Source of the DNA: Gammaproteobacteria bacterium
Lineage (GTDB): Bacteria; Pseudomonadota; Gammaproteobacteria; SZUA-229
Assembly: GCA_015488295.1 (NCBI GenBank)
Contig: WFOC01000084.1
Location: forward strand, 1 to 56,684
Reading direction: 5' to 3'
Length of the DNA stretch: 56,684 bases
Positions 12,814 to 41,281 of this stretch are shown here, piece after piece; positions within the stretch are counted from its first letter, which is position 1, and each line of letters begins with the position of its first letter. Position numbers and translations under genes: made by a program. The notes under the pieces were generated by a model that saw only the letters and a list, made by a program, of their open reading frames with translations, was not told the DNA's origin and did no database searches.

Positions 12814-13398
12814 TTATTTCACACCTCTTTCAATCAGATAACTGCTGTACTCCTTATCCGTGCCATTGATATGTTTGATCAGCCAGACCTTGAGAAATTC
12901 AACCGCATTACTCATCGCCGAATCCTGATCATGCTGGTACTCTGATAAAACCTCTTCCACTTTTTTGAACATCTTTTCGTGCTGCACCTTATGATCTTCA
13001 TACCCCGGATAGCCATTGTCGCGCAGCAGGCCTTCCTCATACGTAAAATGCGTTTTGGTGTAGTCAACTAATTCATCCAGCGCTTCCTGTTCGAATTCCC
13101 TGCTGGTCGAATAATCTATCGCTGTTTGCAGCTGGTTGATCAGATTGATCAGTTTTTTATGTTGCTGATCGATGGAATCGATGCCAACACTGTAATCATC
13201 TTTCCATTCGAGATACTGCTCCGATGACCATTTTTTATGCAGAAAGGGAATGAACAGCAGCATTGCTATCAACGCCCATGTGACCGGGCTCGATGGGTTC
13301 ACCAGTAACCCCAGTATAGCGCCGATGATCAACGTCAGAATAAGCAGTGATACACCGAACATACACATTTTTTTATTCTGGCACATCGTTTTTCTCAT
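12814..13398 (-). CDS. Membrane-anchored hemerythrin-like (bacteriohemerythrin) domain protein
   Basis: Two N-terminal TM segments, then WKDDYSVGIDSIDQQHKKLINLINQL ... HF..EE ... H..H.. pattern of hemerythrin. Confidence 0.75.
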   Translation of the reverse strand: MRKTMCQNKKMCMFGVSLLILTLIIGAILGLLVNPSSPVTWALIAMLLFIPFLHKKWSSEQYLEWKDDYSVGIDSIDQQHKKLINLINQLQTAIDYSTSREFEQEALDELVDYTKTHFTYEEGLLRDNGYPGYEDHKVQHEKMFKKVEEVLSEYQHDQDSAMSNAVEFLKVWLIKHINGTDKEYSSYLIERGVK

Positions 13399-19592: not shown

Positions 19593-20033
19593 GTGACACT
19601 CGACGAAATAATCCCCTACCTTCCGCATTTTCAGGCAATACTGAACACCTGCGCTGCGCTGCTGTTAAGCACGGGCTATTATTTCATCAAAAAAGATAAT
19701 CATGATGCGCATAAAAAATGCATGATAACGGCGCTGCTGGTCTCCACGGTGTTCATGATTTCCTATCTGACCTATCACGCAGAAGTCGGCTACGCGCCGT
19801 TTACCGGTCAGGGGATGATTCGCCCGTTTTATTTCACCATGCTTGCCTCACACATTATTCTGGCTGCACTGATCGTGCCGATGGTACTGGCTACCGCCTA
19901 TTTTGCATTCACCGGTAATTTCAAAAAACATCCACGCGTTGCACGCTGGACATTGCCACTGTGGCTTTATGTTTCAGTCACCGGCGTGCTCATCTACATT
20001 CTCGGCTTTCACGTATACAAACCAGAACTATAA
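19593..20033 (+). CDS. DUF420-like 4-TM membrane protein (family usually found near SCO1/CtaA genes)
   Basis: 146 aa, GTG start, 4 TM helices with conserved His. The family assignment is from memory of the pattern. Confidence 0.6.
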   Translation: MTLDEIIPYLPHFQAILNTCAALLLSTGYYFIKKDNHDAHKKCMITALLVSTVFMISYLTYHAEVGYAPFTGQGMIRPFYFTMLASHIILAALIVPMVLATAYFAFTGNFKKHPRVARWTLPLWLYVSVTGVLIYILGFHVYKPEL

Positions 20034-20423: not shown

Positions 20424-20936
20424 CTAGATAAGAATGAATCCCTGCAAGGGGTCGAACTCAATCAACAGGATGTGTGCAGGCTCGATACTCAATTCCCGTT
20501 CAAACACATAATCAAAGCCCGGGTTTCTTACACTGTCATCCATTCTGATTTCCAGCCGGTGTTTGCCGGCAGAGATTTTTTTACTGAAATAAATATCCAC
20601 GCTACCATCGTTAAACAAGCCCGGCGGTTGCATGGTTTCACTGTAAACCAGCTCGCCATCCAGCCTGGCTTCGACTGTAATCGGTGAGCGTTCACGCGGA
20701 CAGTCTTCCGGTTTGCGCATGTTTGGCGGCAGCTTCATCAACTCCTGCTGGCTGAGTTTGCGGCACGGCTCACGAAGCTCGCCGGCATGTGCGAAGGCAA
20801 TGGTGAGCAGACTCTCGTTTTCACCGATAAGACGCACTGATGGCGATGTTGAAAAATACCAGATCAACGCCATGAATACGGTGTAATTAATGACCTGTAA
20901 CAGGTAACGTACCGGTTTGCTGTTCAGCGCGCTCAT
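20424..20936 (-). CDS. N-terminally TM-anchored 170-aa protein, unknown function, translationally coupled to the upstream fusion gene
   Basis: ATGA start/stop overlap at 20936. One TM helix followed by a soluble domain. Confidence 0.6.
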   Translation of the reverse strand: MSALNSKPVRYLLQVINYTVFMALIWYFSTSPSVRLIGENESLLTIAFAHAGELREPCRKLSQQELMKLPPNMRKPEDCPRERSPITVEARLDGELVYSETMQPPGLFNDGSVDIYFSKKISAGKHRLEIRMDDSVRNPGFDYVFERELSIEPAHILLIEFDPLQGFILI

Positions 20937-22495
20937 CAGCTGTTACCTCCCGCACCATCATTTTCAGCAGCCGTAGCTTCGGCCTGTTTTAATTTCGCCA
21001 GCTCGGCCCTGAATTCATCCAGGTCTCTTTCAACTTCATTTTTATCGGTTTCAGCTGCGCCATGCACGCGAATGCGATTTCGGTCAGCACGACCACGAAG
21101 AATGGGTTTACGCTCGCCGGCAAAACGTGCTTTCACCCAGCGGTTACCGAAACGGTAATAACAATCATTGTGTCGACAGCCGGTGACCATAACGCCATCA
21201 GCGCCATTTTTTAAGGCATATTCAACCAGCGTTGGCGGCAACATGCCGCTGCAGATAAGTCGAACGCCTTTGGTTTCATCATCTTCCAGACGACTCACAT
21301 TCAGGCCATGCTCACAGCCGTAAACCAGTATTTTTGTTTCACCGCTTAGCGCCGCTATCGCTTCCCTGGTCTGGGAACGCATTTTATCGACCGGCAACTG
21401 CGGCATGTCGATACCGGTTTTCAGTTCTTCATTACGCGAGCGGAACGGGTTGGAAGACGGGCAGGAACCCGCACAGATTCCGCAGGCCGCACACAGTTCG
21501 GGATTAACCACCACTTCTTTGTCGAACTTCATGCCGTCGGTACGCGCCTGCACGGTAATGGCATCAAACGGACAGTCATCAAAACACAGTTCGCAACCAT
21601 TACAATGTGCAAGATCAACCACCGCTTTGGGACCGTCTTTTTTCGGCGGCAACCACGGCAACATCATCAACAGCCAGGTAATACCGAGGGTAAAGATCCA
21701 CACCTGACCTTCTGTCCAGATGTCGAGCAAGGGATAGATGTTGAGATAAAACCAGTCAAGATGAATGACTTCAGGCATTTTAGTAAGGTCGGCCGGAGCA
21801 TGACTTAATGCAGGTTTATACAGCGATAGTGCAAGCAGGGCCAGCAAGGTGCCAACAGCAAGTCCACGGGGTGGATTGATTTTTACATCGGACAAACGTT
21901 TTACGTGCAGCCACAACATGAACGCCAGCACCAGCGGCTGACCGAGCAGGTGCAGAAATTCGATGAGAATGAAAAAACGGTCGGTCATCTCACCCGCAAC
22001 AAAATTACGCGTCATTGCGCCCGGCAGCAACGGCAAGGCATCCACCAAACGTGCGGAACCGATAGCAATATACTGCGCCATCTCATCCCACACCAGCCAG
22101 TAACCGGTGATACCCAGGGTAACGACAACCCAGAGATTCGGCACCCCGGTCACCCATGAAAACCAGCGGAAACCACGATAACGACCAGAGGCAAATTCCT
22201 TGAACATGTGCAGCAGAATTGTCACCACCACCGCATCCGAGGCATAGCGATGCAGGCTGCGCATAACGCCGCCAGCGTACCACTGCTGATGGGTAATATA
22301 TTCTACCGAGGCATGCGCACCATCAATGCTGCCGTGGAAAGGAATGAACAGGTAAATGCCGGTGATCAAAATCACCCAGAACAGAAAAAAGGATAAAGTA
22401 CCAAGATGGTATAAAGGATTCCATTCCGTGCCAAACGAAATATTGAACCAGGATTCCAGAGCCAGATAGACTCGTTTAACAGGATTGACTAGCAC
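20936..22495 (-). CDS. Fusion protein: dihaem cytochrome b (b/b6 N-terminal type) + 2x[4Fe-4S] ferredoxin + MvhD/FlpD-like domain
   Basis: RSLHRYASD...LLHMFKEF and FLHLLGQ...WLHVKR (four His in two helices). CNGCELCFDDCP and CAACGICAGSCP. C-terminal ILVYGCEHG...LICSGMLPP...VTGCRHNDCYY. GTG start with agga 10 nt upstream. Confidence 0.8.
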   Translation of the reverse strand: MLVNPVKRVYLALESWFNISFGTEWNPLYHLGTLSFFLFWVILITGIYLFIPFHGSIDGAHASVEYITHQQWYAGGVMRSLHRYASDAVVVTILLHMFKEFASGRYRGFRWFSWVTGVPNLWVVVTLGITGYWLVWDEMAQYIAIGSARLVDALPLLPGAMTRNFVAGEMTDRFFILIEFLHLLGQPLVLAFMLWLHVKRLSDVKINPPRGLAVGTLLALLALSLYKPALSHAPADLTKMPEVIHLDWFYLNIYPLLDIWTEGQVWIFTLGITWLLMMLPWLPPKKDGPKAVVDLAHCNGCELCFDDCPFDAITVQARTDGMKFDKEVVVNPELCAACGICAGSCPSSNPFRSRNEELKTGIDMPQLPVDKMRSQTREAIAALSGETKILVYGCEHGLNVSRLEDDETKGVRLICSGMLPPTLVEYALKNGADGVMVTGCRHNDCYYRFGNRWVKARFAGERKPILRGRADRNRIRVHGAAETDKNEVERDLDEFRAELAKLKQAEATAAENDGAGGNS

Positions 22496-22557: not shown

Positions 22558-22571
22558 TTGACTCATATCAA
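22558..22571. promoter_or_regulatory. FNR/DNR-type box TTGACtcatATCAA upstream of the cytochrome b fusion gene
   Basis: Its centre is about 70 nt upstream of the GTG at 22495 (minus strand). Confidence 0.6.
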
Positions 22572-22703: not shown

Positions 22704-23537
22704 TTAGGCGGGTTTTTTACCCTTGTGCAACTCACGCCGCATAAACCAGATAATCGAAAAGATCACTGTAAAGCCAACAAACATTCCTACAAATAATGAG
22801 TAATCAAAATAGTAAGCTCCGGTATGCGGATCGTATGTAGTGCAGAACAGTTTGATTTTGTTGCCCAGACTGGACAGGAAAGTCTGTTCAGGTTGCGGCC
22901 GTCCCAGCACCAGTTCCAGTAATGGATCAACCAGCAACGGGGTCTCGAACACCTGACCGTAAACCTGCCGGTAAACCTTGCTGTCAGCATCAATAACCGT
23001 GGCCTGTATCAAATGATCAAAACCGCTTGATGTCGGGTAATACAAAAAACCCAGTTCTTCCGTCAGTGAGGCAAGGTTTTCTTCATCAATGCTTAACAGG
23101 TGCCAGCCTTTATCGCTGATGCCCTGCATGTTTGCGAAATACTGCATCGCCTCCGGGGTATCAACACGGGTATCAAAACCGATAACAGCGACCGAGAAAC
23201 TATCCTCGCCCAGAGCATCACGCGCTTTTTCTACCACCTTCGAAAGATGCCGGGTCGTCATCGGACAGATCTGATAACAGCTGGTAAAAACCATGCTGAT
23301 AACCAGCGGCTTACCACGAAAATCGCTCAGTGATACCTGCTTGCCTTCTGCATTTGTAAAAACATGATCACCCAGTTTTTTACCGATGGCTGACTGACTG
23401 GTCCTGAGTGCGACATCATAGTCAAATTTCGGCTTGTCCTCGACCACAGGTTTTTTAGTCGACACAAAAGTCACGCCAACCGCGTGCAGGGGAATCAAAA
23501 GCAGCAGAAAGCTGCCGATTAGAAGGCTCAATCGCAT
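22704..23537 (-). CDS. SCO1/SenC-family copper chaperone (thioredoxin fold), copy 1
   Basis: FTSCYQICP (CxxxC) motif, N-terminal signal/anchor, extra C-terminal TM helix. Confidence 0.85.
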   Translation of the reverse strand: MRLSLLIGSFLLLLIPLHAVGVTFVSTKKPVVEDKPKFDYDVALRTSQSAIGKKLGDHVFTNAEGKQVSLSDFRGKPLVISMVFTSCYQICPMTTRHLSKVVEKARDALGEDSFSVAVIGFDTRVDTPEAMQYFANMQGISDKGWHLLSIDEENLASLTEELGFLYYPTSSGFDHLIQATVIDADSKVYRQVYGQVFETPLLVDPLLELVLGRPQPEQTFLSSLGNKIKLFCTTYDPHTGAYYFDYSLFVGMFVGFTVIFSIIWFMRRELHKGKKPA

Positions 23538-23588: not shown

Positions 23589-24452
23589 CTAACCCAATAA
23601 AAAAACGTCAAGTACCGCACCGATTAATAAACAGACCAGTTGCACCAGCGAAGCGAAGAAACTTTTCATCGCCACTTTTGGTGTTGGCTGTTGAATCATC
23701 CGGTAATTTTGGTAAATAAAATAACCGCCACCACTTACCGCGCCGGCAAGGTATAACCAGCTCAGACCGTAGAAAAACGGCAGTATCGATACACCAACCA
23801 GGATAAGGGTGTTACCCAGAACCACAACGGCTGTACGTTTATCACCGATTATCACCGGCAACATCGGCACACCTGCTTTGGCATAATCCTGATGCTTGGC
23901 AATGGCCAGGCTCCAGAAATGCGAAGGTGTCCAGAAAAACAGCACCAGTGCCAGCAGAATTGGAATCGGACTCAGATCCGGATCAACCGCTGCTGCACCT
24001 GCGAGCACAGCAAAGCTGCCCGAAGCGCCGCCAATCACAATATTCATCCAGGTACGGCGTTTTAATAGAACCGTATAAATGATGGCATAAAAGAATGCCC
24101 CCAGAAAAATATAAAGTGCCGCTGCATTATTTAAAAATAACGCCGCAGAACCTACACCGGCTCCCAACAATGCCAGGATAAACACTATCCACAGTGGATT
24201 TTTTCGGAAGCTGCCGGTAACAAAAGGACGGTCTTCTGTCCGTTTCATCACACTGTCAAGATCAACTTCAAAGTACTGATTAAAGGCTCCGGCACTGCCT
24301 GCTGATATCAGCACGGCAAAACACAGAACCAATATCTGTACACCACTGAGTGCCTCTCCCGGTGTTACCACCATGGCAACCAGTGCAGTCAGCATCATAA
24401 TGACACCGATACGCAATTTTAATAGATTGGTTAATTGCTTAAATATATCCAT
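23589..24452 (-). CDS. ctaB: Protohaem IX farnesyltransferase (haem O synthase)
   Basis: UbiA-family pattern and the FFWTPSHFWSLAI motif. Confidence 0.9.
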   Translation of the reverse strand: MDIFKQLTNLLKLRIGVIMMLTALVAMVVTPGEALSGVQILVLCFAVLISAGSAGAFNQYFEVDLDSVMKRTEDRPFVTGSFRKNPLWIVFILALLGAGVGSAALFLNNAAALYIFLGAFFYAIIYTVLLKRRTWMNIVIGGASGSFAVLAGAAAVDPDLSPIPILLALVLFFWTPSHFWSLAIAKHQDYAKAGVPMLPVIIGDKRTAVVVLGNTLILVGVSILPFFYGLSWLYLAGAVSGGGYFIYQNYRMIQQPTPKVAMKSFFASLVQLVCLLIGAVLDVFLLG

Positions 24453-24480: not shown

Positions 24481-24521
24481 AAAAAAACGTGGGACAGAGC
24501 GCTGTCCCTCCCACGTTTTTT
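24481..24521 (-). terminator. Hairpin plus U-run immediately after HCO subunit I (terminator or attenuator before ctaB)
   Basis: aaaaaacgtgggacag...ctgtccctcccacgtttttt. On the minus strand the stem is followed by ttttttt. Confidence 0.6.
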
Positions 24522-24537: not shown

Positions 24538-26271
24538 CTAGCTAATATGCCAGACGGATGCCAGGTAGTCCCAGTTGATGAAGTAATACACCACGAAACA
24601 TACCAGCAGTGCCATCGCAAGAACAAACGTTCCCGGTGCCTCAAAGCCACCATCACCATGTTCTTCCACCGGCTGTTTAGGAGCCATCAGCAGACGCTCA
24701 GGCTGTTCAACGTTGTAAACACCTGCAGCCAGTGGCGCACCAAAGCTCTGCAGCAGACCGGCAGACTCTTCCAGCTTCTTACCAAACAGTAAAGAGCCAA
24801 CAGTTACGATCAGATACATCGCACCGCCAACAACGCCGAGTACACCACCAATCGCACCAACGGCCATCATCATGTAAGCCGTACCAGGGTACTCAAAGCT
24901 TAACATTGCGCCGGTGAAGTCCATGTCCCAGTGACGACGTGATACACCCAGTGTACCCGCACCCAGCATGAACAGAACCATCAGTGTCATACCGCCACCG
25001 AAAACGTAAGGCTGCCATTTAGCCATGGTAGGCAGGAACAGTGCACGTCTGAACAGCAGCGGGATCAACAGATAAGTCAATGCCATGAAGGTCAGTGTGG
25101 TACCGGTTACTACTGTGGCATGGAAATGCGCAGGTACATAAATGGTGTTATGAATGATCAGGTTAATCTGCTCGGTACCCATAACAACACCGGTGATACC
25201 GCCGATGAAGCCAAAGGTGAACAGCGAGATGAAGAAGCCCGAGAATACCGGATTCCCCCACGGTGCCTTACGCAACCATTCGAACAGGCCCTTGGTCAGC
25301 CCTTTTCCGCGCTGCGCAACTTCCATCGCCCCCGGAATGGTCAAACCGTGAATCATACTGGCCAGTACCGCAAGATACATCGCGTAACTGGTGTTGAATA
25401 CTTTCCACTCAGAGCTTACGCCCGGATCAACCAGAATGTGGTGAGCACTGGCTAACTGCAGGAAGAAGATATACAGCAGGAAGGCTGCACGACTTACTTT
25501 CTCTGACATTGGACGAGCGCCAAACAAAACACCGACGATCAGATACCAGACAGCTACGTGTGCGGCAACATTAATCTGCTGCGAAGAGTGACCCAGACCC
25601 CACCAGATTATGCGATACATGGCGGAATCAATATGGTTAATGTAGCCGATAGACCAGAGGAATGTCGGCACCAGGATGATGGCACCACAGGCAATGGTGA
25701 AAACAGCGATAATGGCTGCAGTCAGGGCACCAAAGGTAACCAGTGGAATCGAGCCTTCGTAGGTATTATCCTCCTTGGCGATAACCAGCGTGCCAAAGAA
25801 AACAAACACCGCGATGAGCGCCCCCACCGCAAACAGAATAAGCCCCAGATAGAAATGAGGCTCGGCCTGCATCGGCACATAGGATGTCATCATCACGCTC
25901 GAGTTACCCTGGAATACGGCGACATTGTTCATCACCGCACCGACGAGCATCAGCGCAAAGCCGGTCCATGCCCAGCCCGGTGCCGCCAGTCGCGTGCGCA
26001 ACAGGGTCGAGGAAGCGAAATACAGAATCGCCATTTCAAAGAAGATGATCCAGAAGATCAGTGCGTTAATACCATGTGCCGTCAGCACTTGATAGAACAT
26101 ATCTGCAGGCAGCAGATGTACTTCCTGCCAGCGCGTCAGAACAACACCCAACGCCATAATACCTGCGACCAGTAATGCCACTGCGCCAGCAACAGCATTC
26201 GCCTTCATCAGGCTTTCTGCAGATTTGTCAAAATAGAAGCCCGTGTCCGGGCAAATTCTGAATTGTGCCAT
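24538..26271 (-). CDS. Haem-copper oxidase superfamily subunit I, B-family-like but lacking the cross-link Tyr
   Basis: IWWGLGHSSQQ aligns to ba3-type FWWTGHPIVY. AHH lies 49/50 residues later, followed by AHFHATV. Confidence 0.9.
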   Translation of the reverse strand: MAQFRICPDTGFYFDKSAESLMKANAVAGAVALLVAGIMALGVVLTRWQEVHLLPADMFYQVLTAHGINALIFWIIFFEMAILYFASSTLLRTRLAAPGWAWTGFALMLVGAVMNNVAVFQGNSSVMMTSYVPMQAEPHFYLGLILFAVGALIAVFVFFGTLVIAKEDNTYEGSIPLVTFGALTAAIIAVFTIACGAIILVPTFLWSIGYINHIDSAMYRIIWWGLGHSSQQINVAAHVAVWYLIVGVLFGARPMSEKVSRAAFLLYIFFLQLASAHHILVDPGVSSEWKVFNTSYAMYLAVLASMIHGLTIPGAMEVAQRGKGLTKGLFEWLRKAPWGNPVFSGFFISLFTFGFIGGITGVVMGTEQINLIIHNTIYVPAHFHATVVTGTTLTFMALTYLLIPLLFRRALFLPTMAKWQPYVFGGGMTLMVLFMLGAGTLGVSRRHWDMDFTGAMLSFEYPGTAYMMMAVGAIGGVLGVVGGAMYLIVTVGSLLFGKKLEESAGLLQSFGAPLAAGVYNVEQPERLLMAPKQPVEEHGDGGFEAPGTFVLAMALLVCFVVYYFINWDYLASVWHIS

Positions 26272-26272
26272 T

Positions 26273-26812
26273 TTATTTCTCCGTCACAATGATTTTGCCA
26301 AGCATGGTATGGTGGCCAATGCCGCAATATTCGTTACATACAATTGCATAATCGCCCGCCTTGTCAGGGGTCATATTAAAGACCATTTCATAGCCTGGCA
26401 GAACCTGCAGATTAATATTTACCGGCTGCAGAGAAAAACCGTGCTGCCAGTCCATTGAGGTGAGGTGTATACGATACGACTGACCGGATTCAAGCTCAAG
26501 AATTGGATACCACTGCCACAGCCTACCCAGAAGATAAACATCGCTGCCAGCAGGTGGTCGAACAATTGGAATACCAGCTTCTTCGCCGACCTGGTATTTT
26601 TCAACCATGGCATCAACTTCTACCTGAAATTTTGCAGGTGTTGTTTGATAAGCTTCGTTAGAAAGATTTTGTTTTCCATAAATATGCCAGTAAGGCATCA
26701 TAAAAAACATAATTAAACACCAGACCAGTGCGATACCAATCCACACTATCTCCTGTTTACCAACTGGTACGTTCCACCAGATTCGATCCGAAGGGGGTAA
26801 AAATGAAGTCAT
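26273..26812 (-). CDS. HCO subunit II, single-TM cupredoxin with a CuA site
   Basis: WQHGF ... CNEYCGIGHHTM (the H..C.E.C...H..M CuA pattern). One nucleotide separates it from the subunit I start. Confidence 0.85.
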   Translation of the reverse strand: MTSFLPPSDRIWWNVPVGKQEIVWIGIALVWCLIMFFMMPYWHIYGKQNLSNEAYQTTPAKFQVEVDAMVEKYQVGEEAGIPIVRPPAGSDVYLLGRLWQWYPILELESGQSYRIHLTSMDWQHGFSLQPVNINLQVLPGYEMVFNMTPDKAGDYAIVCNEYCGIGHHTMLGKIIVTEK

Positions 26813-26826
26813 TGATATTCTCCTTT

Positions 26827-26988
26827 CTATTCAGCAACGGGGATAGTAGCAACTTCCATAATTCCCCACAAAATGTAGAAAACCGTAGGCATGACTACAC
26901 CAATAAACAGTAACAGGAATGGATTATCAAGCATCCGCTGAAAGAAAGGGATTCTTTCCGTCTTTGGGATATTATCTTCTTGGGACAT
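26827..26988 (-). CDS. Untracked 53-aa single-TM ORF heading the HCO operon (possible small subunit)
   Basis: My translation: MSQEDNIPKTERIPFFQRMLDNPFLLLFIGVVMPTVFYILWGIMEVATIPVAE. A strong aaggag lies 7-8 nt upstream. It falls below the ORF-track length cut-off. Confidence 0.55.
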   Translation of the reverse strand: MSQEDNIPKTERIPFFQRMLDNPFLLLFIGVVMPTVFYILWGIMEVATIPVAE

Positions 26989-27152: not shown

Positions 27153-27166
27153 TTGACTTATATCAA
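27153..27166. promoter_or_regulatory. FNR/DNR-type box TTGACttatATCAA in the divergent HCO / hemerythrin intergenic region
   Basis: About 170 nt upstream of the 53-aa ORF start (minus strand) and about 300 nt upstream of the hemerythrin gene (plus strand). Confidence 0.6.
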
Positions 27167-27456
27167 AAGCCTTTCATCTACTTTAAAAATAACATAAAAA
27201 CAATTGAACTATTTCCTGTGCAAAACAAACCATAGACCCAAACTCCCCGGTTCATGACCTGCATCATGGATAACTATGCCCATAAAGAATAATCTGCATC
27301 TCTGCTGAACATATTTTCCACGAATAACCATACCCAGTTAATGGAAAAAATGCCAGCATATAAATTAAAAACCATTACAATATAACGGTTTTTCACGATG
27401 AATCATAAAATCGTACCAAACAAACAAAGTAACGACTTAAATACAGGAGCCTGTTG

Positions 27457-27933
27457 ATGGCATTAATTGAGTGGCGTAAAGAATTTTGCACGGGCGTTGC
27501 AAGCGTTGATTACGAGCATGAAGAACTCATTAACGAGATCAATGAAATCTATACACTGATTGATGACAACGCCGATAAAGAAAATGTCATCGACAAACTC
27601 GGTGATATTTACGGCAGCATCTCGGCACATTTTGCTCTGGAAGAGCAGATGATGGAAAAGCACGATTACGAACATTTCAAGGAACATCAAGCAGACCACG
27701 AACGTCTGCTGGACGAGATTCAGGAGATTACTGAAGAGTTCGAATCAGCCTCCGGGCTGGACACCGACAAGTTCAAACAAAAACTGAACGACTGGTTTCA
27801 GCTGCATTTCAGCACACACGATGCACGTCTGCACAGACTGGCACACCTGATAGACCACGCACCAGTATGCGAATCAACCATGAAATCCATGATACAAAGC
27901 GCGAAAAATGCCCTGCTACGCAGAACAGGTTGA
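27457..27933 (+). CDS. Soluble hemerythrin-like (bacteriohemerythrin) protein
   Basis: IEWRKEFCTGVASVDYEHEELINEINEIY ... HFALEEQMM ... HQADHERLL ... HFSTHD. Confidence 0.8.
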   Translation: MALIEWRKEFCTGVASVDYEHEELINEINEIYTLIDDNADKENVIDKLGDIYGSISAHFALEEQMMEKHDYEHFKEHQADHERLLDEIQEITEEFESASGLDTDKFKQKLNDWFQLHFSTHDARLHRLAHLIDHAPVCESTMKSMIQSAKNALLRRTG

Positions 27934-27989
27934 GCTTATCCGTATTTGTCAGACCAGCCAACTAGCTTTAAACTGCAGAACTCATCATA

Positions 27990-29048
27990 TTGCAGGAAAC
28001 ACTTTTGTTTAATCCATCTGTCACCGCTAACAAAAACAACAAAGCCATTGCCATCTGGCTACTGATCTGCTGCGCGACTATTTTCGGCATGATTATTCTG
28101 GGCGGCATCACCCGATTAACCGGCTCCGGCCTGTCCATGGTGGAATGGGCACCGATCATGGGCATTCTGCCACCGCTTAATGACCAGGAGTGGCAGCAAG
28201 CCTTTCTGCTCTACCAGCAGTTTCCTGAATACCAGATAAAAAATTTCCACATGTCGGTGCATGATTTCAAATCCATCTTCTGGTTTGAATACGGTCACCG
28301 CCTGCTCGGCCGCTCCATCGGCATCATCTTCCTGCTGCCTTTCCTGTTCTTTCTGTTCAAGGGAAAAATCGAAAAAACACTGACACCAAAACTGATCACC
28401 ATGTTTGTGCTCGGCGGTCTGCAGGGCCTGATGGGCTGGTACATGGTCAAGAGCGGCCTGGTCAACGACCCACGTGTCAGCCAGTATCGTTTAACCGCAC
28501 ACCTCGGCCTGGCCGTGGTGATCTACGCCTATATGCTCTGGGTTGCACTTGTCCTGCTGTATCCAAAAATAAATGAAACCGCGCAGGATTCTGTGCGAAA
28601 ACTTGGCAAGCAGTCGCTGTTCATCACCGGCCTCATTATCATCACCATTCTCAGCGGCGGTTTTGTCGCCGGCACCCACGCAGGTTTTGCCTTCAACACC
28701 TTCCCATTGATGCACGGAAAATTAATTCCCGACGGCCTGTTTGAACTAACGCCACTATGGAAAAACTTTTTTGAAAATATTGTCACCGTACAGTTTGACC
28801 ACCGGGTACTGGCAACATTATTATTTATCGTCATTCCGCTTTTCTGGTTCAAAGCCAGGAAGCTGACATTACATCCGCTGGCCCGCACAGGGTGTCACCT
28901 GTTGCTTGCCGCACTGCTATTACAGATTACGCTTGGTATCAGCACCCTGCTGCTGGTAGTGCCTGTTGCCCTCGGCGCAGCACATCAGGCAGGAGCCATT
29001 GTGCTACTGACCGCAGCATTGTTTGTTAACCAGCAATTACATCGCTAA
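27990..29048 (+). CDS. ctaA: Haem A synthase (COX15/CtaA family)
   Basis: 8-TM-like with EYGHRLLGR, QFDHRVLA and AAHQAGA motifs. TTG start; the exact start is uncertain. Confidence 0.85.
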   Translation: MQETLLFNPSVTANKNNKAIAIWLLICCATIFGMIILGGITRLTGSGLSMVEWAPIMGILPPLNDQEWQQAFLLYQQFPEYQIKNFHMSVHDFKSIFWFEYGHRLLGRSIGIIFLLPFLFFLFKGKIEKTLTPKLITMFVLGGLQGLMGWYMVKSGLVNDPRVSQYRLTAHLGLAVVIYAYMLWVALVLLYPKINETAQDSVRKLGKQSLFITGLIIITILSGGFVAGTHAGFAFNTFPLMHGKLIPDGLFELTPLWKNFFENIVTVQFDHRVLATLLFIVIPLFWFKARKLTLHPLARTGCHLLLAALLLQITLGISTLLLVVPVALGAAHQAGAIVLLTAALFVNQQLHR

Positions 29049-29096
29049 GCCCCCGGCTCAGCATCCCATTAAAATATTTTAACGAGCATTTATAAA

Positions 29097-29612
29097 ATGA
29101 AAAATTCTCTAAGAAAACCTGTTCTGGCCGCTTTTCTGGCAGTGCTAACCATATTACCCGGCAGCGTTTTTGCACTACAGGCCTCCGACAACACCAGCAT
29201 CTTCGAGGGCTATTATGCCCGTGTCGGTAACAACGGCAGTCCATCAAGAACACTGCACCACAACGTCTACATGAAACTATATGCCAGGGACGGAAAACAG
29301 TGGGTCGCACTTTTGCACATCCCGCTGCCTTACGCTTCCACCATTGATGAAGATGCCGTGATTCCGAAAATTTTTGAAAAGATAGGCAAGCAGTTGCACT
29401 CCAGCTCATTTGTTCGCGATACCTTTGGTTATCTCGATGAAAAAGCCACAGTGCAATTCGAACATTTCGGTTATATGCAGGATAAAATTATTTTCGAATG
29501 CGGCTCACTGTCGCCCTGCACCATCATGCCGGCAGACGGTTACCTGGAGCTGGTAAAACCGGGAATGATTAACGAGCACATCATCAAATACGATCACATC
29601 GTTAACAAATAA
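29097..29612 (+). CDS. Exported 171-aa protein, unknown function
   Basis: Signal peptide MKNSLRKPVLAAFLAVLTILPGSVFA. No recognisable motif. Confidence 0.55.
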   Translation: MKNSLRKPVLAAFLAVLTILPGSVFALQASDNTSIFEGYYARVGNNGSPSRTLHHNVYMKLYARDGKQWVALLHIPLPYASTIDEDAVIPKIFEKIGKQLHSSSFVRDTFGYLDEKATVQFEHFGYMQDKIIFECGSLSPCTIMPADGYLELVKPGMINEHIIKYDHIVNK

Positions 29613-29645
29613 ATCACCGTTAAATTTTCCCGGGGAACCTGACTC

Positions 29646-30287
29646 ATGACCAGCAAAAAATTACCGATAGGCACGATTGTTATATTCAGTTTTTTTCTGC
29701 TGACAATGGCAGCGGCTTATTTTCTGACCAAGCCACCCGAGCGACCGCCTGAACTTGAAGGCATCATGCGCCCCGACTTCCGCCTGCTGCACCCGTTCAA
29801 ACTCACTGACCAGAACAATCAGGTTTTCGACGAAAAAAGATTACTGGATAAGTGGAGCTTCGTATTTTTTGGTTACACTTCCTGCCCCGACGTATGCCCG
29901 GCAACGCTTTATGTGCTGAGTTCCATTCATGGTTTATTGACCGATGAAAATGGCAAGGCACCCGACGACATGCAGGTGGTCTTTATCTCAGTCGACCCGG
30001 CGCGTGACACCCCGGAAAAACTCGCCAACTACGTCAGCTATTTCAACAGGGATTTTATTGGCGTGACTGCAGATAAAGAAGAAATCGACAAACTGAGTCG
30101 ACAGTTTGGTGCCGGCTATATCCTCGAAGATAAAAAGGCAGACGGTAGCTATAACGTGGCGCACACCAGTGCGATCTTTTTGATTGATCCCTACGGTCGA
30201 CTGGTTGCCACTTTTTCACAGCCGCACCAGGCACCGACCATTACTTCACAGTATAAAAAAATACGGAAATATTTTTCCTGGGATTAA
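29646..30287 (+). CDS. SCO1/SenC-family copper chaperone, copy 2
   Basis: GYTSCPDVCP motif, N-terminal anchor, ...HTSAIFLIDP. Confidence 0.85.
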   Translation: MTSKKLPIGTIVIFSFFLLTMAAAYFLTKPPERPPELEGIMRPDFRLLHPFKLTDQNNQVFDEKRLLDKWSFVFFGYTSCPDVCPATLYVLSSIHGLLTDENGKAPDDMQVVFISVDPARDTPEKLANYVSYFNRDFIGVTADKEEIDKLSRQFGAGYILEDKKADGSYNVAHTSAIFLIDPYGRLVATFSQPHQAPTITSQYKKIRKYFSWD

Positions 30288-30721: not shown

Positions 30722-32098
30722 ATGCTGCCTAACCAATTCGCCATGCTGACCCAGCAGTTCACCCTGCCCGTACCCGATGAATCGGCCAAACGAATGTCTG
30801 CTGGCTGGCTGCTTCTCAGCCTCTCTGCACTGGTCATCGGCGGCCTGTTCACCATTCTGGTGGTGCTTTCGCGCACCCCTTTTTTTCAGGAAATCATACC
30901 CTGGGTTGATTTTTTTCACACCGCGCTGGTCGTGCATGTCGACCTCACCGTACTGGTCTGGTTTGTCGCTTTTTCCGGCGTTTTATGGAGTTACAACAGC
31001 GCCGGAAAATGCCTGCGCTGCGGATGGCTTGCACTGTTTCTGGCCTGCGCCGGTACGCTGATCATCAGCATCTCGCCATTTACCGGCGAGAGTCACCCTC
31101 TGATGAGCAACTATGTTCCGGTCTTGCAAAGCAACACTTTCTTCACTGGTCTGGGACTGTTCGGACTCGGCTTTGCCCTGCTGGTGCTGCGCATGCTGAT
31201 GACCACACTGGCAGAAAAAAACAACAGCGGCGGTGACGTTTTACGCTTCGGCATGTTTATTGCTGTGGTCGCCTCTTTCTTTGCGCTTGCCGCACTGGCG
31301 ATGTCTTACCTTGGCCTGGATAAAAACTTTACCGGCGAAGCCTATTACGACCGCCTGTTCTGGGGCAGTGGCCACATCCTGCAGTTCAACCACACCCAGC
31401 TAATGCTGGTCGCCTGGCTATGGCTGGCCACCGTCAGCGGTGCCTATTTGCGACTGACACCACGCGTGGTACTGATTTTATTTATTCTCGGGCTATCACC
31501 GGTATTGATGGTACCGCTTATTTATATTCTGTTTGATGTCAGCTCCGGCGACCACATGCTCTGGTTTATGCTGATGATGAAATATGGTGGCGCACTGGCC
31601 GCTGTCCCCATCGGTCTGGCAACCACACTGGCTATTTTCGAAAGATGGAAACCAACCCCCGGCTTTGAAATTGAACGCAGCGCACTGATATTTTCCATTC
31701 TGCTGTTCGGTGTTGGCGGCATCATCGGTTTTATGATCAGCGGCAGTGACGTGCGGGTAACCGCGCACTACCACGGCTCCATCGTCGGCGTAACCCTGGC
31801 ATTCATGGGCATGACCTATCACCTGCTGCCGCATCTGGGGTTTCGAAAAATCACCAGCCGCGCCGCCCGCTGGCAACCGGGCATCTACGGCACCGGTCAG
31901 CTGATGCACATCATCGGACTGGCCTGGTCAGGCGGCTATGGCGTACAGCGAAAAACCGCCGGCGCGGATCAGGGACTGGAACAGATCGAACAAATCGCCG
32001 GCATGGGCCTGATGGGACTGGGCGGTTTAATTTCCATCATCGGCGGCATTATTTTTCTGGTGGTAGTTTACAAGGCGATCCGACCGGAAAAAGATTAA
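30722..32098 (+). CDS. Orphan compact haem-copper-oxidase-superfamily-like membrane protein with an altered CuB site
   Basis: FWGSGHILQF (Phe where the cross-link Tyr sits), SSGDHMLWF (Asp-His where His-His is expected), VTAHYHGS (HxH of helix X), upstream FFHTALVVHVD. Confidence 0.6.
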   Translation: MLPNQFAMLTQQFTLPVPDESAKRMSAGWLLLSLSALVIGGLFTILVVLSRTPFFQEIIPWVDFFHTALVVHVDLTVLVWFVAFSGVLWSYNSAGKCLRCGWLALFLACAGTLIISISPFTGESHPLMSNYVPVLQSNTFFTGLGLFGLGFALLVLRMLMTTLAEKNNSGGDVLRFGMFIAVVASFFALAALAMSYLGLDKNFTGEAYYDRLFWGSGHILQFNHTQLMLVAWLWLATVSGAYLRLTPRVVLILFILGLSPVLMVPLIYILFDVSSGDHMLWFMLMMKYGGALAAVPIGLATTLAIFERWKPTPGFEIERSALIFSILLFGVGGIIGFMISGSDVRVTAHYHGSIVGVTLAFMGMTYHLLPHLGFRKITSRAARWQPGIYGTGQLMHIIGLAWSGGYGVQRKTAGADQGLEQIEQIAGMGLMGLGGLISIIGGIIFLVVVYKAIRPEKD

Positions 32099-32125: not shown

Positions 32126-33268
32126 GTGATATTAAACCTCAAATACATCTATGGCATTATCTTCATCAGCTTGTCCGCATGGGTTGTCTACGCCTATGTC
32201 ACAACCACTGAGATTATTCAAAGCCAGAAAAATTACGCGCATATCATCAATATCAGCGGTAAGCAGCGCATGCTGTCTCAAAAGACAACGCTTATCGCAA
32301 AACGCTATTACGAAACCGGCGACCCCGAACTAAAAAAACACCTCATCGAACTGTACTGGTTGATGAAAAAAGACCATCAGGAAATCGTTAACACACATCT
32401 GGTCTCGGAAGACATTAAAGCGGTTTATCGTCAGTCACCCGACAACCTCAATGAAAAAGTTGAAAGCTATCTGGAATTGCTTGCCGATTTCATTGAGAAC
32501 AAAGACCCTGAAATACTGAAGCAGATCGAAAAAGCCTCGTTTGAACTTTTGCCGCAAATAAACAAAACCGTTTATATGTTCGAAAACGAAAGCAACAAAA
32601 AAACACAGGCTCTGATGGACCGGGAGTTTTTTATACTGGTTGGCACACTGCTAACGCTGATCATTGAAGCCGCAATCATCGTTATCCCCGCCATCAGAAT
32701 TGCCTCACGTAAAGACTCTGAACTACGCCGCCTGATCGAGGAACGCACTTACGAACTGGAAAAGCTTTCTGTCACCGACCAGCTAACCAAACTCTATAAC
32801 CGGCGCAAGATCGACGACATACTGGCCACTGAAGTAGAACAGGCCAGACGCTACAATAATTCATTCAGCCTGATTCTTATCGACATCGATCACTTTAAAA
32901 AAGTCAACGACCGTTACGGACATCTGGTGGGTGACCGGATTTTACAGGCACTATCAAGACTGTTTTCTTCCAACATACGCAAGACCGATATAGTTGGCCG
33001 CTGGGGTGGAGAGGAGTTTCTGATTATCAGCATGGAAAAAGACATTACAAAAGTTTTAATCTTTGTTGAAAAACTTCGCACCCTGGTCGACGAACACCAT
33101 TTCAAAACTGTCGGCAATATAACCTGCAGCTTCGGCGTTTCTCACTTCAAGCAGGGCGACAGTATCGACACCTTGCTTCAACGCGCCGATGTTGCTCTGT
33201 ACGAAGCAAAAAAAGCCGGCAGAAACTGCGTAAAAATCGAAAAGAGCAAACACCTGTTTCCAGTTTGA
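32126..33268 (+). CDS. Diguanylate cyclase (GGDEF) with a periplasmic PilJ/NarX-P-box-like sensor region
   Basis: NISGKQRMLSQKT between two TM segments. RWGGEEFLI active-site motif. GTG start. Confidence 0.85.
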   Translation: MILNLKYIYGIIFISLSAWVVYAYVTTTEIIQSQKNYAHIINISGKQRMLSQKTTLIAKRYYETGDPELKKHLIELYWLMKKDHQEIVNTHLVSEDIKAVYRQSPDNLNEKVESYLELLADFIENKDPEILKQIEKASFELLPQINKTVYMFENESNKKTQALMDREFFILVGTLLTLIIEAAIIVIPAIRIASRKDSELRRLIEERTYELEKLSVTDQLTKLYNRRKIDDILATEVEQARRYNNSFSLILIDIDHFKKVNDRYGHLVGDRILQALSRLFSSNIRKTDIVGRWGGEEFLIISMEKDITKVLIFVEKLRTLVDEHHFKTVGNITCSFGVSHFKQGDSIDTLLQRADVALYEAKKAGRNCVKIEKSKHLFPV

Positions 33269-37982: not shown

Positions 37983-38085
37983 AATAGAAACTATTGATTT
38001 TTATTTATACCGGGGTTTTAGCATAATGTCCACCACGCGGTTACCACCGCGCCATAACTCATTTATTGAATCACTGGAGAACACA

Positions 38086-39504
38086 ATGGCTAAAACCTAT
38101 GACGCGGGTGTAAAAGAATACCGCGAAACTTATTGGCGCCCAGATTATACCCCGAAAGATACGGATATTCTGGCCTGTTTCAAAATCACCCCTCAGGATG
38201 GTGTACCTCGTGAAGAAGTTGCTGCTGCGGTAGCTGCAGAATCATCAACTGGTACCTGGACCACAGTATGGACCGACCTGCTGACTGATCTTGATTACTA
38301 CAAGGGCGTTGCTTATGCAATGGAAGACGTACCAGGCGACGACACATGCTTCTACGCATTTATCGCCTACCCAATTGACCTGTTTGAAGAAGGTTCAGTT
38401 GTAAACGTTATGACTTCACTTGTTGGTAACGTATTCGGCTTTAAAGCTCTGCGTGCACTGCGTTTAGAAGACATCCGTTTCCCGATCGCCTACGTTATGA
38501 CATGTAATGGTCCACCACAGGGTATCACTTTAGAGCGTGACATCCTGAACAAATACGGTCGTCCAATGCTGGGTTGTACTATTAAGCCTAAACTGGGTCT
38601 GTCTGCGAAGAACTACGGTCGTGCATGTTACGAAGGTCTGCGCGGCGGTCTTGACTTCACTAAAGATGACGAGAACGTAAACTCACAGCCATTCATGCGC
38701 TGGCGCGCTCGTTTCGACTTCGTAATGGAAGCGATTCTGAAAGCTGAAGCTGAAACTGGTGAGCGTAAAGGTCACTACCTGAACGTTACTGCACCGACTG
38801 CTGATGAAATGATGCGTCGTGCTGAATACGCCAAAGAAATCGGCGCTCCTATCATCATGCATGACTACCTGACTGGTGGCTGGTCTGCTAACACACAGCT
38901 GGCTCAATGGTGTCAGGAAAACGGCATGTTGTTACACATTCACCGCGCTATGCACGCGGTAATGGATCGCAACCCGCACCACGGTATCCACTTCCGTGTA
39001 CTAACCAAGATTCTGCGTCTGTCTGGTGGTGATCACCTGCACTCCGGTACTGTTGTAGGTAAGCTGGAAGGCGACCGCGAAGCAACTCTGGGCTGGATCG
39101 ACATCATGCGTGATTCATACGTTAAAGAAGATCGCTCACGCGGCATCTTCTTCGACCAGGACTGGGGCGCTATGCCTGGCCTGTTCCCTGTTGCTTCTGG
39201 TGGTATCCACGTATGGCACATGCCAGCACTGGTTAACATCTTTGGTGACGACTCAGTACTGCAGTTTGGTGGCGGTACATTAGGTCACCCCTGGGGCAAC
39301 GCCGCAGGTGCAGCAGCCAACCGTGTAGCAGTTGAAGCTTGTGTAGAAGCTCGCAACATGGGTCGTGAACTTGAGAAAGAAGGTAAAGACATCCTGACAG
39401 CGGCTGCGAAACACAGCCCAGAGCTGAACGCAGCGATGGAAACCTGGAAAGAAATCAAGTTTGAGTTCGACACTGTTGACAAACTTGACGTTTCTCACAA
39501 GTAA
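38086..39504 (+). CDS. cbbL: RuBisCO large subunit, form IA
   Basis: [17 protein letters not shown]..., [25 protein letters not shown]. The ATG at 38086 is preceded by ggaga. The ORF-track start at 38026 is rejected. Confidence 0.97.
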
Positions 39505-39606
39505 GATCTCACAGGTCATTTAGTCATTGGCAGGGTGCGCATACACAGTACTGTCGCACTCTGCTGACTAATAACACATATACAAATATTTATTTGGAGC
39601 AATAAA

Positions 39607-39954
39607 ATGCAAGATTATGAATCAAGTTTGAGCGATGCCTCAAGCCGTAAATTTGAAACTTTTTCATATTTACCACCGATGACACCTGAGCAGACTCGTC
39701 AGCAGATCGAGTACATCGTCAGCAAAGGCTGGAACCCGGGTATCGAACACACTGAACCAGAAAATGCCAATGGTCACTACTGGTACATGTGGAAACTGCC
39801 TATGTTTGGTGAAACTGACGTGGACGCTATTTTGAAAGAAGTAGAAGCGTGTCACGCAGCACACCCTGACAACCACGTTCGTCTGTTAGGTTTTGATAAC
39901 TTTGCCCAGTCTGCTGGTGCATCTATGGTTATCTACCGCGGCAAGACTGTTTAA
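39607..39954 (+). CDS. cbbS: RuBisCO small subunit
   Basis: 115 aa. [11 protein letters not shown]...[11 protein letters not shown]. Confidence 0.95.
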
Positions 39955-39974
39955 TTAAACAGCCTTAACGTACT

Positions 39975-40002
39975 GATCCGGTCACAATCATGTGACCGGA
40001 TC
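39975..40002 (+). other. Perfect 12-bp stem hairpin just after cbbS (mRNA 3' stabiliser or partial terminator)
   Basis: gatccggtcaca-atca-tgtgaccggatc. No strong U-run follows. Confidence 0.5.
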
Positions 40003-40018
40003 TATCAGGTAAAAAATA

Positions 40019-40330: not shown

Positions 40331-40365
40331 TAAAACAACTATTAATAAGATGAGTGGGTATAATT

Positions 40366-41181: not shown

Positions 41182-41281
41182 AAACGAAACCCGGAAACTT
41201 GTTCTTATTCAGGATAAATCCGTCAACTCGACGGCAAAATCCGGATAAAACATGAGTTGAAACTACATATGGTGTACCGTT

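Follow-up and report, generated by a model that had tools for sequence, protein, structure and literature searches.

The three minus-strand genes at 24538–26988 of the window (the whole 56,684-nt stretch of DNA analysed) encode, with a probability that we put at about 0.8, an eNOR-family nitric oxide (NO) reductase made up of a small peptide, a subunit II with a CuA centre and a subunit I derived from B-type oxidases. The eNOR family has already been described and one of its members biochemically characterised; the enzyme encoded here is a further member. The operon is organised as follows:

26827–26988, minus strand: 53-aa membrane peptide encoded by the first operon gene (ORF call, one transmembrane helix)
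26273–26812, minus strand: subunit II (179 aa), one N-terminal membrane helix and a cupredoxin domain whose CuA site is complete (alignment with ba3)
24538–26271, minus strand: haem-copper subunit I (577 aa), probably of eNOR type (COX1 match, residue alignment, HMMs, tree)
24481–24521, minus strand: hairpin and U-run between subunit I and ctaB, an intrinsic terminator or attenuator (folding, -22.9 kcal/mol, z = -3.96)
23589–24452, minus strand: heme o synthase, ctaB/cyoE (TIGR01473, 260 bits, exceeding the cut-off)
22704–23537, minus strand: SCO1/SenC copper chaperone; CxxxCP motif, membrane helix at the C-terminus (PF02630)

The initial annotation of this DNA had placed ctaB and SCO1/SenC downstream of the structural genes, with a hairpin and U-run parting the latter from ctaB; family matches and folding, respectively, bear this out. 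In related loci, the 53-aa peptide was detected by tblastn in 74 out of 80, heme o synthase 3′ of subunit I in 44 out of 52, and the SCO1/SenC gene in 50 out of 52. A small ORF also lies 5′ of subunit II on Thermus, Thermomicrobium and Defluviimonas plasmids; judged by position, the 53-aa peptide corresponds to ba3 subunit IIa.

Subunit I matches Pfam COX1 with 212 bits, and its nearest solved relatives found by phmmer are B-family oxidases (7deg, 2.8e-42; Thermus thermophilus ba3, ~2e-39), in agreement with the kinship to ba3-type oxidases that had been proposed from the sequence by eye. The AF2 model (pTM 0.84) also has ba3 as its best Foldseek match (TM 0.74–0.79). In the HMMER alignment, iiwwglGHssqQ of subunit I stands opposite lfwwtGHpivY, so that His228 corresponds to His233 and Gln232 to Tyr237 of ba3. 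The same alignment reproduces the manual pairing of IWWGLGHSSQQ with FWWTGHPIVY, the HH pair (His277/His278) at +49/+50 from His228, and the AHFH motif at residues 381–384, containing His382 and His384. All six canonical histidines (His66, His228, His277, His278, His382 and His384) match ba3 ligands, with no variation among 61 relatives. By this correspondence, His66 and His384 are predicted to bind the low-spin haem, His382 the high-spin haem, and His228, His277 and His278 the non-haem metal. Gln232 occupies the place of the cross-link Tyr, as had been claimed, and is invariant in both the 61 aligned relatives and 39 cluster representatives; thus, it is not a chance substitution. An ordinary B-family O2 reductase of the ba3 type was ruled out by this residue at the helix VI cross-link Tyr position.

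Subunit II yields only weak matches to the COX2/CoxB families but aligns with ba3 subunit II (2.6e-16) and retains every CuA ligand: WQHGF gives the equivalent of ba3 His114, while C-N-E-Y-C-G-I-G-H-H-T-M covers Cys149, residue 151, Cys153, His157 and Met160 of the ba3 CuA domain. The CuA motif is therefore complete, as first read, and descent from B-type oxidases with CuA kept is supported.

The residue at the cross-link Tyr position distinguishes families of NO reductases: it is Gln in eNOR and Asn in sNOR and bNOR/qCuANOR (PMC8756737 Table A4; PMC3475470), the eNOR Gln signature being also given in the Fig. 6 legend of PMC8756737. Subunit I aligns over its full length with a protein of Natronomonas pharaonis (40% identity, 2e-127), a species of the genus in which eNOR was first described. 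An HMM built solely from haloarchaeal, Thermus and Thermomicrobium Gln-type proteins, all distant, scores subunit I at 620 bits; against the Tyr-retaining sister group and against ba3-like proteins, subunit I scores 500 and 340 bits, respectively. In a neighbour-joining tree of 51 sequences, computed in the absence of R. marinus eNOR, sNOR and bNOR references, 21 Gln-type sequences including subunit I and the N. pharaonis protein make up exactly one clade in 192 out of 200 bootstraps, with subunit I grouped with the Natronomonas, Thermus-plasmid and Thermomicrobium Gln-type proteins. The ba3-like sequences of the comparison all have Tyr in the Gln232 column, and the NorB encoded in the window has Glu there, as expected of a cNOR. 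The protein of a Bacteroidota locus (L027) carries GHSSQQ; in the Thermus Gln-type member Lys replaces the second helix X His, a His/Lys variant that Murali et al. attribute to some eNORs (PMC11214002). The related loci include Magnetospirillaceae, Rhodocyclaceae and other Betaproteobacteria, groups that have been reported with eNOR.

An assignment of the enzyme to the sNOR family, as an orthologue of norSY-senC of ammonia oxidisers, had been favoured initially. Indeed, sNOR and the bNOR/qCuANOR of Bacillus azotoformans share with it an origin from B-type oxidases, the lack of the cross-linked Tyr, CuA subunits and a neighbouring SenC/SCO1 gene, and sNOR is likewise thought to reduce NO. We nevertheless regard this assignment as very improbable. 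Asn at the diagnostic position defines sNOR and bNOR, which form separate clades in the published tree, whereas subunit I has Gln232 and is nested in the Gln-type clade; Asn was found in 0 of the best 150 motif-carrying cluster representatives, and no ammonia oxidiser is present among the best 80 genome loci. A tblastn search of 72,556 plasmids revealed no Asn-type proteins among the 12 hits examined, of which 3 were Gln-type (Defluviimonas, Thermus and Thermomicrobium) and the others had Tyr. Inspection of channel residues likewise speaks against sNOR, which is reported to lack the equivalent of ba3 Ser309 and to have a conserved Glu elsewhere in the channel region (PMC11214002): here the equivalent, Ser305, is present. 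The gene context, taken at first as sNOR-like, follows the operon order reported for eNOR, i.e. subunit II, subunit I, heme o synthase and sco1 (bioRxiv 10.64898/2026.01.22.701106).

Other families were also considered. Both cNOR and qNOR were ruled out by Gln instead of Glu at His+4 and by a partner subunit with CuA. In gNOR one of the metal-binding His is changed to Asp and subunit II is devoid of CuA ligands; this family was ruled out since all three His and all CuA ligands are there.

The broader part of the initial proposal, that the enzyme is an alternative haem-copper NO reductase and not an O2 reductase, is supported by the Gln232 signature and the eNOR-clade placement, and on these sequence grounds appears to hold. 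The comparison with T. thermophilus ba3 (1EHK) is instructive in this respect. The two enzymes have in common a 13-helix subunit I, a CuA subunit II, the gene order small peptide, subunit II, subunit I, and a K-type proton path, in which Tyr243, Ser305 (invariant in relatives) and Thr311 correspond to ba3 Tyr248, Ser309 and Thr315, with His308 in place of Thr312. In contrast, ba3 contains the His233-Tyr237 cofactor and reduces O2, while subunit I has Gln232 instead, as well as Glu79, Gln231, Asn234 and Tyr296, which are not found in ba3. Tyr296, located in helix VIII, occurs without exception in the Gln-type sequences and not in the relatives, so that it is present just where the canonical Tyr is lost. 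This residue could be the source of the fourth electron if the enzyme were a terminal oxidase, or a bifunctional O2/NO reductase, working at very low O2. The B-type oxidase ancestry agrees with such a function, as do the nearest relatives outside the clade, which retain the Tyr (GHTxQY group), the need for O2 in haem A synthesis, and the ctaA, DUF420 and hemerythrin genes beside the cluster; a like argument has already been raised for sNOR in Nitrosomonas. However, R. marinus eNOR did not reduce O2 with several donors tried, and the models of Murali et al. show no migrated tyrosine (PMC11214002). As far as the work is summarised there, the Magnetospirillum magnetotacticum homologue had no cytochrome c oxidase activity. 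The operon, moreover, shares an FNR/DNR box with norC and the haem d1 genes. We thus consider O2 reduction unlikely and eNOR the preferred reading.

Two of the boxes concern the operon and its adjoining genes directly:

27153–27166: FNR/DNR-type box TTGACTTATATCAA, 165 nt 5′ of the small ORF, within the divergent promoter region (match to TTGAYN4RTCAA)
22558–22571: another FNR/DNR-type box, 63 nt 5′ of the cytochrome b-FeS gene (match to TTGAYN4RTCAA)

The window contains 4 TTGAYN4RTCAA boxes compared to 0.46 expected by chance; the three besides that at 27153–27166 precede norC, nirE and the cytochrome b-FeS gene. With only the strict pattern counted, 41 of 72 related loci have a box in the 400 nt upstream (background, 0.03 per 400 nt). 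The upstream FNR/DNR-type box of the initial annotation is thus recovered as a candidate site, and so are the accompanying cNOR, nnrS and nir genes: the window also encodes norCBQD, nirE/F/DLGH/J and nnrS. The cNOR (norCB, 1403–3256) has the same FNR/DNR box upstream and shares reaction and superfamily with eNOR, but it has Glu at the diagnostic position, pairs with a haem c subunit where eNOR has CuA, and lacks both haem A and a cytoplasmic proton channel.

Among known systems, the closest biochemical reference is the eNOR of Rhodothermus marinus DSM 4252, which reduces NO but not O2 and contains heme As (Murali et al. 2024, PMC11214002). Gln at the Tyr position, a CuA subunit II, K-channel-like polar residues and haem A biosynthesis genes nearby are common to both enzymes; R. 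marinus belongs to another phylum, and the likeness rests on the shared signature, Natronomonas homology and the literature. Murali et al. also place in eNOR the ‘cytochrome a1’-like hemoprotein of M. magnetotacticum MS-1 (PMC11214002), which, in the account given there of the earlier papers, was purified, contained haem a and had no cytochrome c oxidase activity (Tamegai 1993; Tanimura and Fukumori 2000). A Magnetospirillaceae locus of our set (L042) encodes a protein 68–69% identical to subunit I in the same gene order. In the eNOR operon of ‘Candidatus Ferrigenium straubiae’ KS, the genes for subunits II and I, in this order, are followed by heme o synthase, sco1 and another protein of unknown function; the operon is adjoined by cytochrome b/[Fe-S] genes and is expressed under nitrate-reducing conditions (bioRxiv 10.64898/2026.01.22.701106). 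The cytochrome b/[Fe-S] genes were called ‘unusual’ in that paper, yet they occur in 50 of 52 related genomes here; one Ferrigenium paralogue has FAD and NADH domains, which the protein of the window lacks.

The surroundings of the operon contain further genes, some of them on the divergent side:

20936–22495, minus strand: 519-aa fusion, in which a dihaem cytochrome b domain with six predicted helices at the N-terminus is joined to two CxxCxxCxxxCP [4Fe-4S] motifs and, at the C-terminus, a domain resembling FlpD/MvhD (domain matches)
20424–20936, minus strand: 170-aa protein with a membrane anchor and a β-sandwich domain, its start overlapping the preceding stop (AF2 pLDDT 80)
30722–32098, plus strand: 458-aa haem-copper-oxidase paralogue (COX1, 59 bits)
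27454–30287, plus strand: divergent unit of bacteriohemerythrin (27454–27933), ctaA (27990–29048), a 171-aa protein (29097–29612) and a second SCO1 (29646–30287) (Pfam/NCBIfam matches)
19593–20033, plus strand: DUF420 membrane protein (CtaM-like) beside the cluster (PF04238, 143 bits)

An eight-gene module is retained in 44–50 of 52 related genomes; beyond the core it includes ctaB, SCO1, the cytochrome b-2[4Fe-4S]-MvhD fusion, the β-sandwich protein with its membrane anchor, and a haem-copper paralogue devoid of the CuB His-His pair. Its cultivable carriers include Simplicispira hankyongi, Curvibacter sp. PAE-UM, Comamonas faecalis and Noviherbaspirillum sp. ST 5-3 (loci L037, L048, L071 and L076). 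The fusion is found in 50 out of 52 related loci with its Cys and His conserved, and its Fe-S part is predicted to be cytoplasmic. The 170-aa protein, likewise in 50 out of 52, has 610 homologues, every one named hypothetical; it has no family match in Pfam or NCBIfam, and its AF2 model gave no Foldseek match below E = 0.01. In the 458-aa paralogue (44 out of 52 loci), the histidines for haem and that of helix VI are retained, whereas Ile-Tyr replaces the CuB His-His pair; in most relatives its gene is the last of the eNOR operon, but here it has been moved to the divergent side. The fusion, the 170-aa protein and this paralogue are extras of the proteobacterial clade, unreported for R. marinus in the literature found. 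Genes of the adjoining cluster are retained less often: among the best 80 loci ctaA was detected in 21 and hemerythrin in 13, the latter being also last in the cluster on the Defluviimonas plasmid, and the DUF420 protein was found in 9 of 80 related loci. By its likeness to CtaM, the DUF420 protein is presumably tied to haem-A oxidase function.

These observations lead to a tentative proposal that the proteobacterial eNOR is the core of a conserved eight-gene respiratory module and not a free-standing two-subunit enzyme, the fusion, the β-sandwich protein and the CuB-less paralogue being its partners. The partners could link NO reduction, by an electron path of its own, to quinol or a cytoplasmic low-potential carrier, bypassing bc1; alternatively, with little O2 available, they could be involved in maturing the haem-A and metal centre. 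To our knowledge, neither role has been described so far. The module also leaves room for a function other than that proposed: the enzyme might reduce or sense another small molecule (N2O, nitrite or peroxide), or be active only once assembled with the cytochrome b-FeS fusion and the CuB-less paralogue into a larger complex; NO reduction by the core pair of subunits on its own would then not be the physiological reaction. The retention of the eight genes, the presence of a cNOR in the same window and the low turnover of R. marinus eNOR, 0.68 NO per second (PMC11214002), would fit. Yet nothing observed points to another substrate, the R. marinus enzyme does convert NO to N2O (PMC11214002), and eNOR transcripts and protein are abundant in denitrifying Ferrigenium (bioRxiv 10.64898/2026.01.22.701106). 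We judge this possibility to be slight, somewhat below that of an oxidase.

For the eNOR reading, a mechanism can be outlined by analogy with the known enzymes. CuA would be reduced by a periplasmic donor, and electrons would then travel via the low-spin haem (His66/His384) to the high-spin haem (His382), opposite which the non-haem metal would be held by His228, His277 and His278; 2 NO would be converted to N2O at this site. With no His-Tyr cofactor, the fourth electron for O2 reduction would be unavailable. Protons are probably taken up from the cytoplasm via the K-channel analogue formed by Tyr243, Ser305, His308 and Thr311, so NO reduction could be electrogenic, unlike that of cNOR. The haems are probably A-type: a modified haem a (heme As) at both haem sites is characteristic of eNOR, and the Rhodothermus enzyme contains heme As. 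This would account for ctaB in the operon and for the adjoining ctaA, SCO1 and DUF420 protein genes. Low O2 or NO would act through an FNR/DNR-type regulator to induce the operon jointly with norCB, the haem d1 genes and the cytochrome b-FeS gene. Most likely, then, the enzyme would work beside a cNOR as a haem-A-type NO reductase that draws its electrons from CuA, is controlled through FNR/DNR and is possibly electrogenic. Besides Tyr296, two considerations count against this picture: with a complete cNOR (norCBQD) already in the window, NO reduction by eNOR would be redundant, and the O2 requirement of the haem A pathway, together with the hemerythrin in the cluster, would tie the enzyme to microoxic rather than anoxic life.

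Subunit I and thousands of its close relatives are publicly named cytochrome c oxidase or cbb3-type oxidase subunit I. As a result of such misnaming, genome surveys miss these proteins when tallying NO-reducing, N2O-producing organisms; what is gained here is a correct annotation rather than a discovery. The accessory genes, conserved as they are, offer cheap markers of this proteobacterial module, and they point to a system for electron input or maturation that has yet to be studied. If the eNOR reading is right, an autotrophic, sulfur-oxidiser-like gammaproteobacterium has two NO reductases, one of which may conserve energy and be tuned to the oxic-anoxic boundary.

Three tightly packed genes on the reverse strand make up the 24538-26988 region:

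26827-26988 (-), ORF, small peptide of 53 aa with a single helix
26273-26812 (-), ORF, subunit II, 179 aa
24538-26271 (-), ORF, subunit I, 577 aa

By its match to Pfam COX1 (212 bits), subunit I clearly belongs to the haem-copper oxidase superfamily; it scores far under the cut-offs of NCBI's equivalog models for subunit I of aa3 and cbb3 enzymes. Its solved relatives, as found by sequence, are B-family oxidases only (7deg, 2.8e-42; Thermus thermophilus ba3, ~2e-39). The AlphaFold model (pTM 0.84, mean pLDDT 76.7) has ba3 as its best structural match (TM 0.74-0.79, E = 7e-17), with A-family enzymes six orders of magnitude behind.

HMMER alignment pairs WWGLGHSSQQ of subunit I with ba3 FWWTGHPIVY, so that His228 corresponds to ba3 His233 and Gln232 to ba3 Tyr237, the cross-linked tyrosine. 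His277/His278 correspond to ba3 His282/His283; His382 and His384 are the helix X haem ligands, and His66 is the helix II ligand. None of these residues varies in an alignment of 61 relatives (38-93% identity). In subunit II every CuA ligand is kept when aligned with the ba3 CuA domain. The initial annotation had described a ba3-like subunit I with an HH pair and helix X histidines, Gln in place of the cross-linked Tyr, and a complete CuA site; this observation is confirmed on each point.

The same annotation proposed an sNOR-type NO reductase. Published signatures place Asn at the tyrosine position in sNOR (PMC8756737 Table A4, after Hemp and Gennis 2008) and in Bacillus CuANOR, or bNOR (PMC3475470; PMC8756737 Table A4), Gln in eNOR, and Glu in cNOR and qNOR (PMC8756737 Table A4). 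For gNOR the same table lists Asp, elsewhere described as Asp in place of one of the metal-binding histidines. Gln232 is thus indicative of eNOR; the comparisons with sNOR, bNOR and the Rhodothermus marinus eNOR were made through such published signatures. Searched exhaustively, 1.84 billion cluster representatives yielded 1374 relatives, and among the best 150 of these GHxxQQ occurs in 39 sequences, the other motif carriers having Tyr and none having Asn. P0160, a full-length Gln-type representative that is 40% identical to subunit I, belongs to a haloarchaeal group including a Natronomonas pharaonis protein, with which the window's protein aligns end to end (40% identity, E = 2e-127); eNOR was first described in the genus Natronomonas. 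Further Gln-type proteins are encoded on Thermus thermophilus plasmids (beside nirS), a Thermomicrobium roseum megaplasmid and a Defluviimonas plasmid. In the Thermus protein the second helix X histidine is replaced by Lys, matching the His/Lys low-spin haem variant mentioned for some eNORs (Murali et al., PMC11214002). On T. thermophilus TF24 plasmid pTF24b (L081, 6283-8668) the Gln-type enzyme consists of a small ORF, cbaB_2 and subunit I, carries a ba3 oxidase annotation and is ~3 kb away from nirS.

An HMM built from distant Gln-type proteins only (haloarchaeal, Thermus and Thermomicrobium) scored the window's protein at 620 bits, compared with 500 bits for the nearest Tyr-retaining group and 340 for ba3-like oxidases. 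Tree placement, proposed as a check in the initial annotation, was carried out by neighbour-joining on 51 sequences: the 21 with Gln in the tyrosine column form exactly one clade (192/200 bootstraps), to which the window's protein belongs. The window's own NorB, an internal control, has Glu in that column. The B1 subfamily, eNOR and bNOR retain an equivalent of ba3 Ser309 that sNOR lacks (Murali et al., PMC11214002); here it is Ser305, which is invariant. With Gln232 instead of Asn, Ser305 kept and membership in the Gln-type clade, sNOR, as defined by its published signatures, is rejected, and residues, HMM and tree together assign the enzyme to eNOR. The family is already known, having been described in 2008 and biochemically characterised in 2024.

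The eNOR of R. marinus turns over 0.68 NO per second at 25 °C, with N2O as product; none of the donors tried supported O2 reduction, and both haem sites hold heme As (PMC11214002). A Magnetospirillum magnetotacticum member has been published, as cited in PMC11214002, as a haem-copper protein 'without cytochrome c oxidase activity'. By analogy with these relatives, the window's enzyme is probably an NO reductase and not an oxidase: this half of the initial reading is probably right, resting on the relatives' biochemistry, while its sNOR label was wrong. Electrons would pass from a periplasmic carrier to CuA, the low-spin haem and then the high-spin haem with its non-haem metal site, where two NO would be coupled to N2O. 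Substrate protons would come from the cytoplasm through a K-channel analogue mapped from ba3 (Tyr243, Ser305, His308 and Thr311 for ba3 Tyr248, Ser309, Thr312 and Thr315), and the reaction would therefore be electrogenic. Judging from gene content, ctaB in the operon and the adjoining ctaA, second SCO1 and DUF420 (CtaM-like) genes fit a haem-A, copper-containing enzyme.

A residue table shows that eNOR and a Tyr-retaining sister group share Glu79, Gln231, Asn234, Tyr267 and His308, all missing from ba3-like enzymes, and differ from each other at Gln232 and Tyr296. Tyr296, in helix VIII, is invariant in 14/14 Gln-type sequences compared; in relatives an aliphatic or other small residue takes its place (Leu, Ile or Val in the sister group). 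The HMMER alignment puts Tyr296 beside the ba3 Thr302 position, about level with the metal-binding histidines. In these alignments Tyr296 appears exactly where the canonical Tyr disappears, and it deserves a structural look. Murali et al. (PMC11214002) found no migrated tyrosine in their models, and the failure of R. marinus eNOR to reduce O2 argues against Tyr296 as a functional replacement. The sister group (P0159, P0161, P0166 and P0185; GHTxQY, 34-44% identical to the window's protein) presumably comprises uncharacterised oxidases that mark the step before tyrosine loss. In another set of haem-copper proteins, P0210, P0221, P0244 and one on Azospirillum brasilense plasmid p1 (L088), Tyr takes the place of the first histidine in the His-His pair (LYH), and helix VI reads FHxxHY.

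Subunit I is followed by a hairpin with a U-run (-22.9 kcal/mol, z = -3.96 vs shuffles), and 3' of it lie genes for heme o synthase (ctaB) and then an SCO1 protein. A TTGAYN4RTCAA box precedes the first gene by 165 nt. Four boxes of this kind occur in the window vs 0.46 expected, the other three lying ahead of norC, nirE (a haem d1 gene) and the cytochrome b-FeS gene. Also encoded are norCBQD, nirE/F/DLGH/J, a Crp/Fnr regulator and nnrS. The gene context reported initially (hairpin, ctaB-SCO1, FNR/DNR-type box, and cNOR, nnrS and nir genes) is thus borne out. Of 72 related loci, 41 carry a strict box no more than 400 nt ahead of the first gene (background rate, 0.03 per 400 nt), and we count this predicted site as a trait of the family and not a local accident.

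Two COX3-like (NorE-type) genes flank norQ in the nor cluster (3344-3937 (+) and 5118-5714 (+)). Two hemerythrin genes (27454-27933 (+) and 12814-13398 (-)) each lie near an FNR/DNR box; hemerythrin is found in 13 of the best 80 related eNOR loci, and on the Defluviimonas plasmid (L084) its gene closes the cluster. The protein may be tied to O2 supply or sensing for the adjoining O2-dependent heme A synthase. The host is probably an autotroph, since cbbQ and a cbbO-like gene of von Willebrand type come after a gene for the RuBisCO large subunit (38026-43639 (+)).

A word-indexed search returned at least 8000 subunit I relatives at E = 1e-10; the best 120 are 85-100% identical, and the named entries among them are called cytochrome c oxidase subunit I or cbb3-type oxidase subunit I. 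Relatives were confirmed at no fewer than 586 loci (586 of the first 600 pattern matches, one genome per species). By these searches the family is large and well conserved. The best 80 loci include uncultured gammaproteobacterial MAGs (the sulfur-oxidiser genera Thiogranum, Thiohalobacter, Parabeggiatoa and Thioploca among them), Magnetococcales, a Magnetospirillaceae MAG, Rhodocyclaceae and many Burkholderiales, with the isolates Simplicispira hankyongi, Curvibacter sp. PAE-UM, Comamonas faecalis and Noviherbaspirillum sp. ST 5-3. Those closest to the window's locus are the gammaproteobacterial MAGs. The taxa agree with earlier reports of eNOR from Magnetospirillum, Accumulibacter, Gallionellaceae and other Proteobacteria.

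The window's proteins were compared by tblastn with 80 related loci, and the 52 with at least 7 kb downstream were counted. The genes usually lie on one strand in the order listed.

Occurrence of module genes in 52 related loci
Small peptide: 50/52
Subunit II: 51/52
ctaB: 44/52
SCO1: 50/52
20936-22495 (-), 519-aa cytochrome b-FeS fusion: 50/52
20424-20936 (-), 170-aa protein: 50/52
30722-32098 (+), 458-aa haem-copper paralogue: 44/52

The window departs from this arrangement in that the 458-aa paralogue, usually the last operon gene, is on the divergent side. In 48 sequences this paralogue keeps the helix II, VI and X histidines and has Ile/Val-Tyr (Ile-Tyr in the window) where subunit I has His-His, and would thus be able to hold haems but neither CuB nor FeB. 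It lacks the HNT segment ahead of helix X and has no NCBIfam model; by profile it is nearest to the eNOR clade and to the sister group that retains Tyr, with no match to NorB. A PilJ-GGDEF diguanylate cyclase gene (32126-33268 (+)) lies directly 3' of it. The 519-aa fusion, which has its own FNR/DNR box (22558-22571), joins a dihaem cytochrome b domain to two CxxCxxCxxxCP motifs ([4Fe-4S]) and an FlpD/MvhD-like domain; six membrane helices, counted by reading the sequence, would place the Fe-S part in the cytoplasm. Translationally coupled to it is the 170-aa protein, which has two invariant Cys, no family assignment (all 610 homologues are named hypothetical) and an AF2 model of a membrane anchor plus β-sandwich with no significant PDB match.

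The accessory genes are absent from the Thermus and Thermomicrobium loci; conservation of the module holds for relatives at ≥65% identity. A preprint on Ferrigenium straubiae (2026; bioRxiv 10.64898/2026.01.22.701106) gives the gene order of the operon and describes its cytochrome b/[Fe-S] genes as 'rather unusual', whereas in the window's clade they are the rule. We consider this accessory module the most useful lead.
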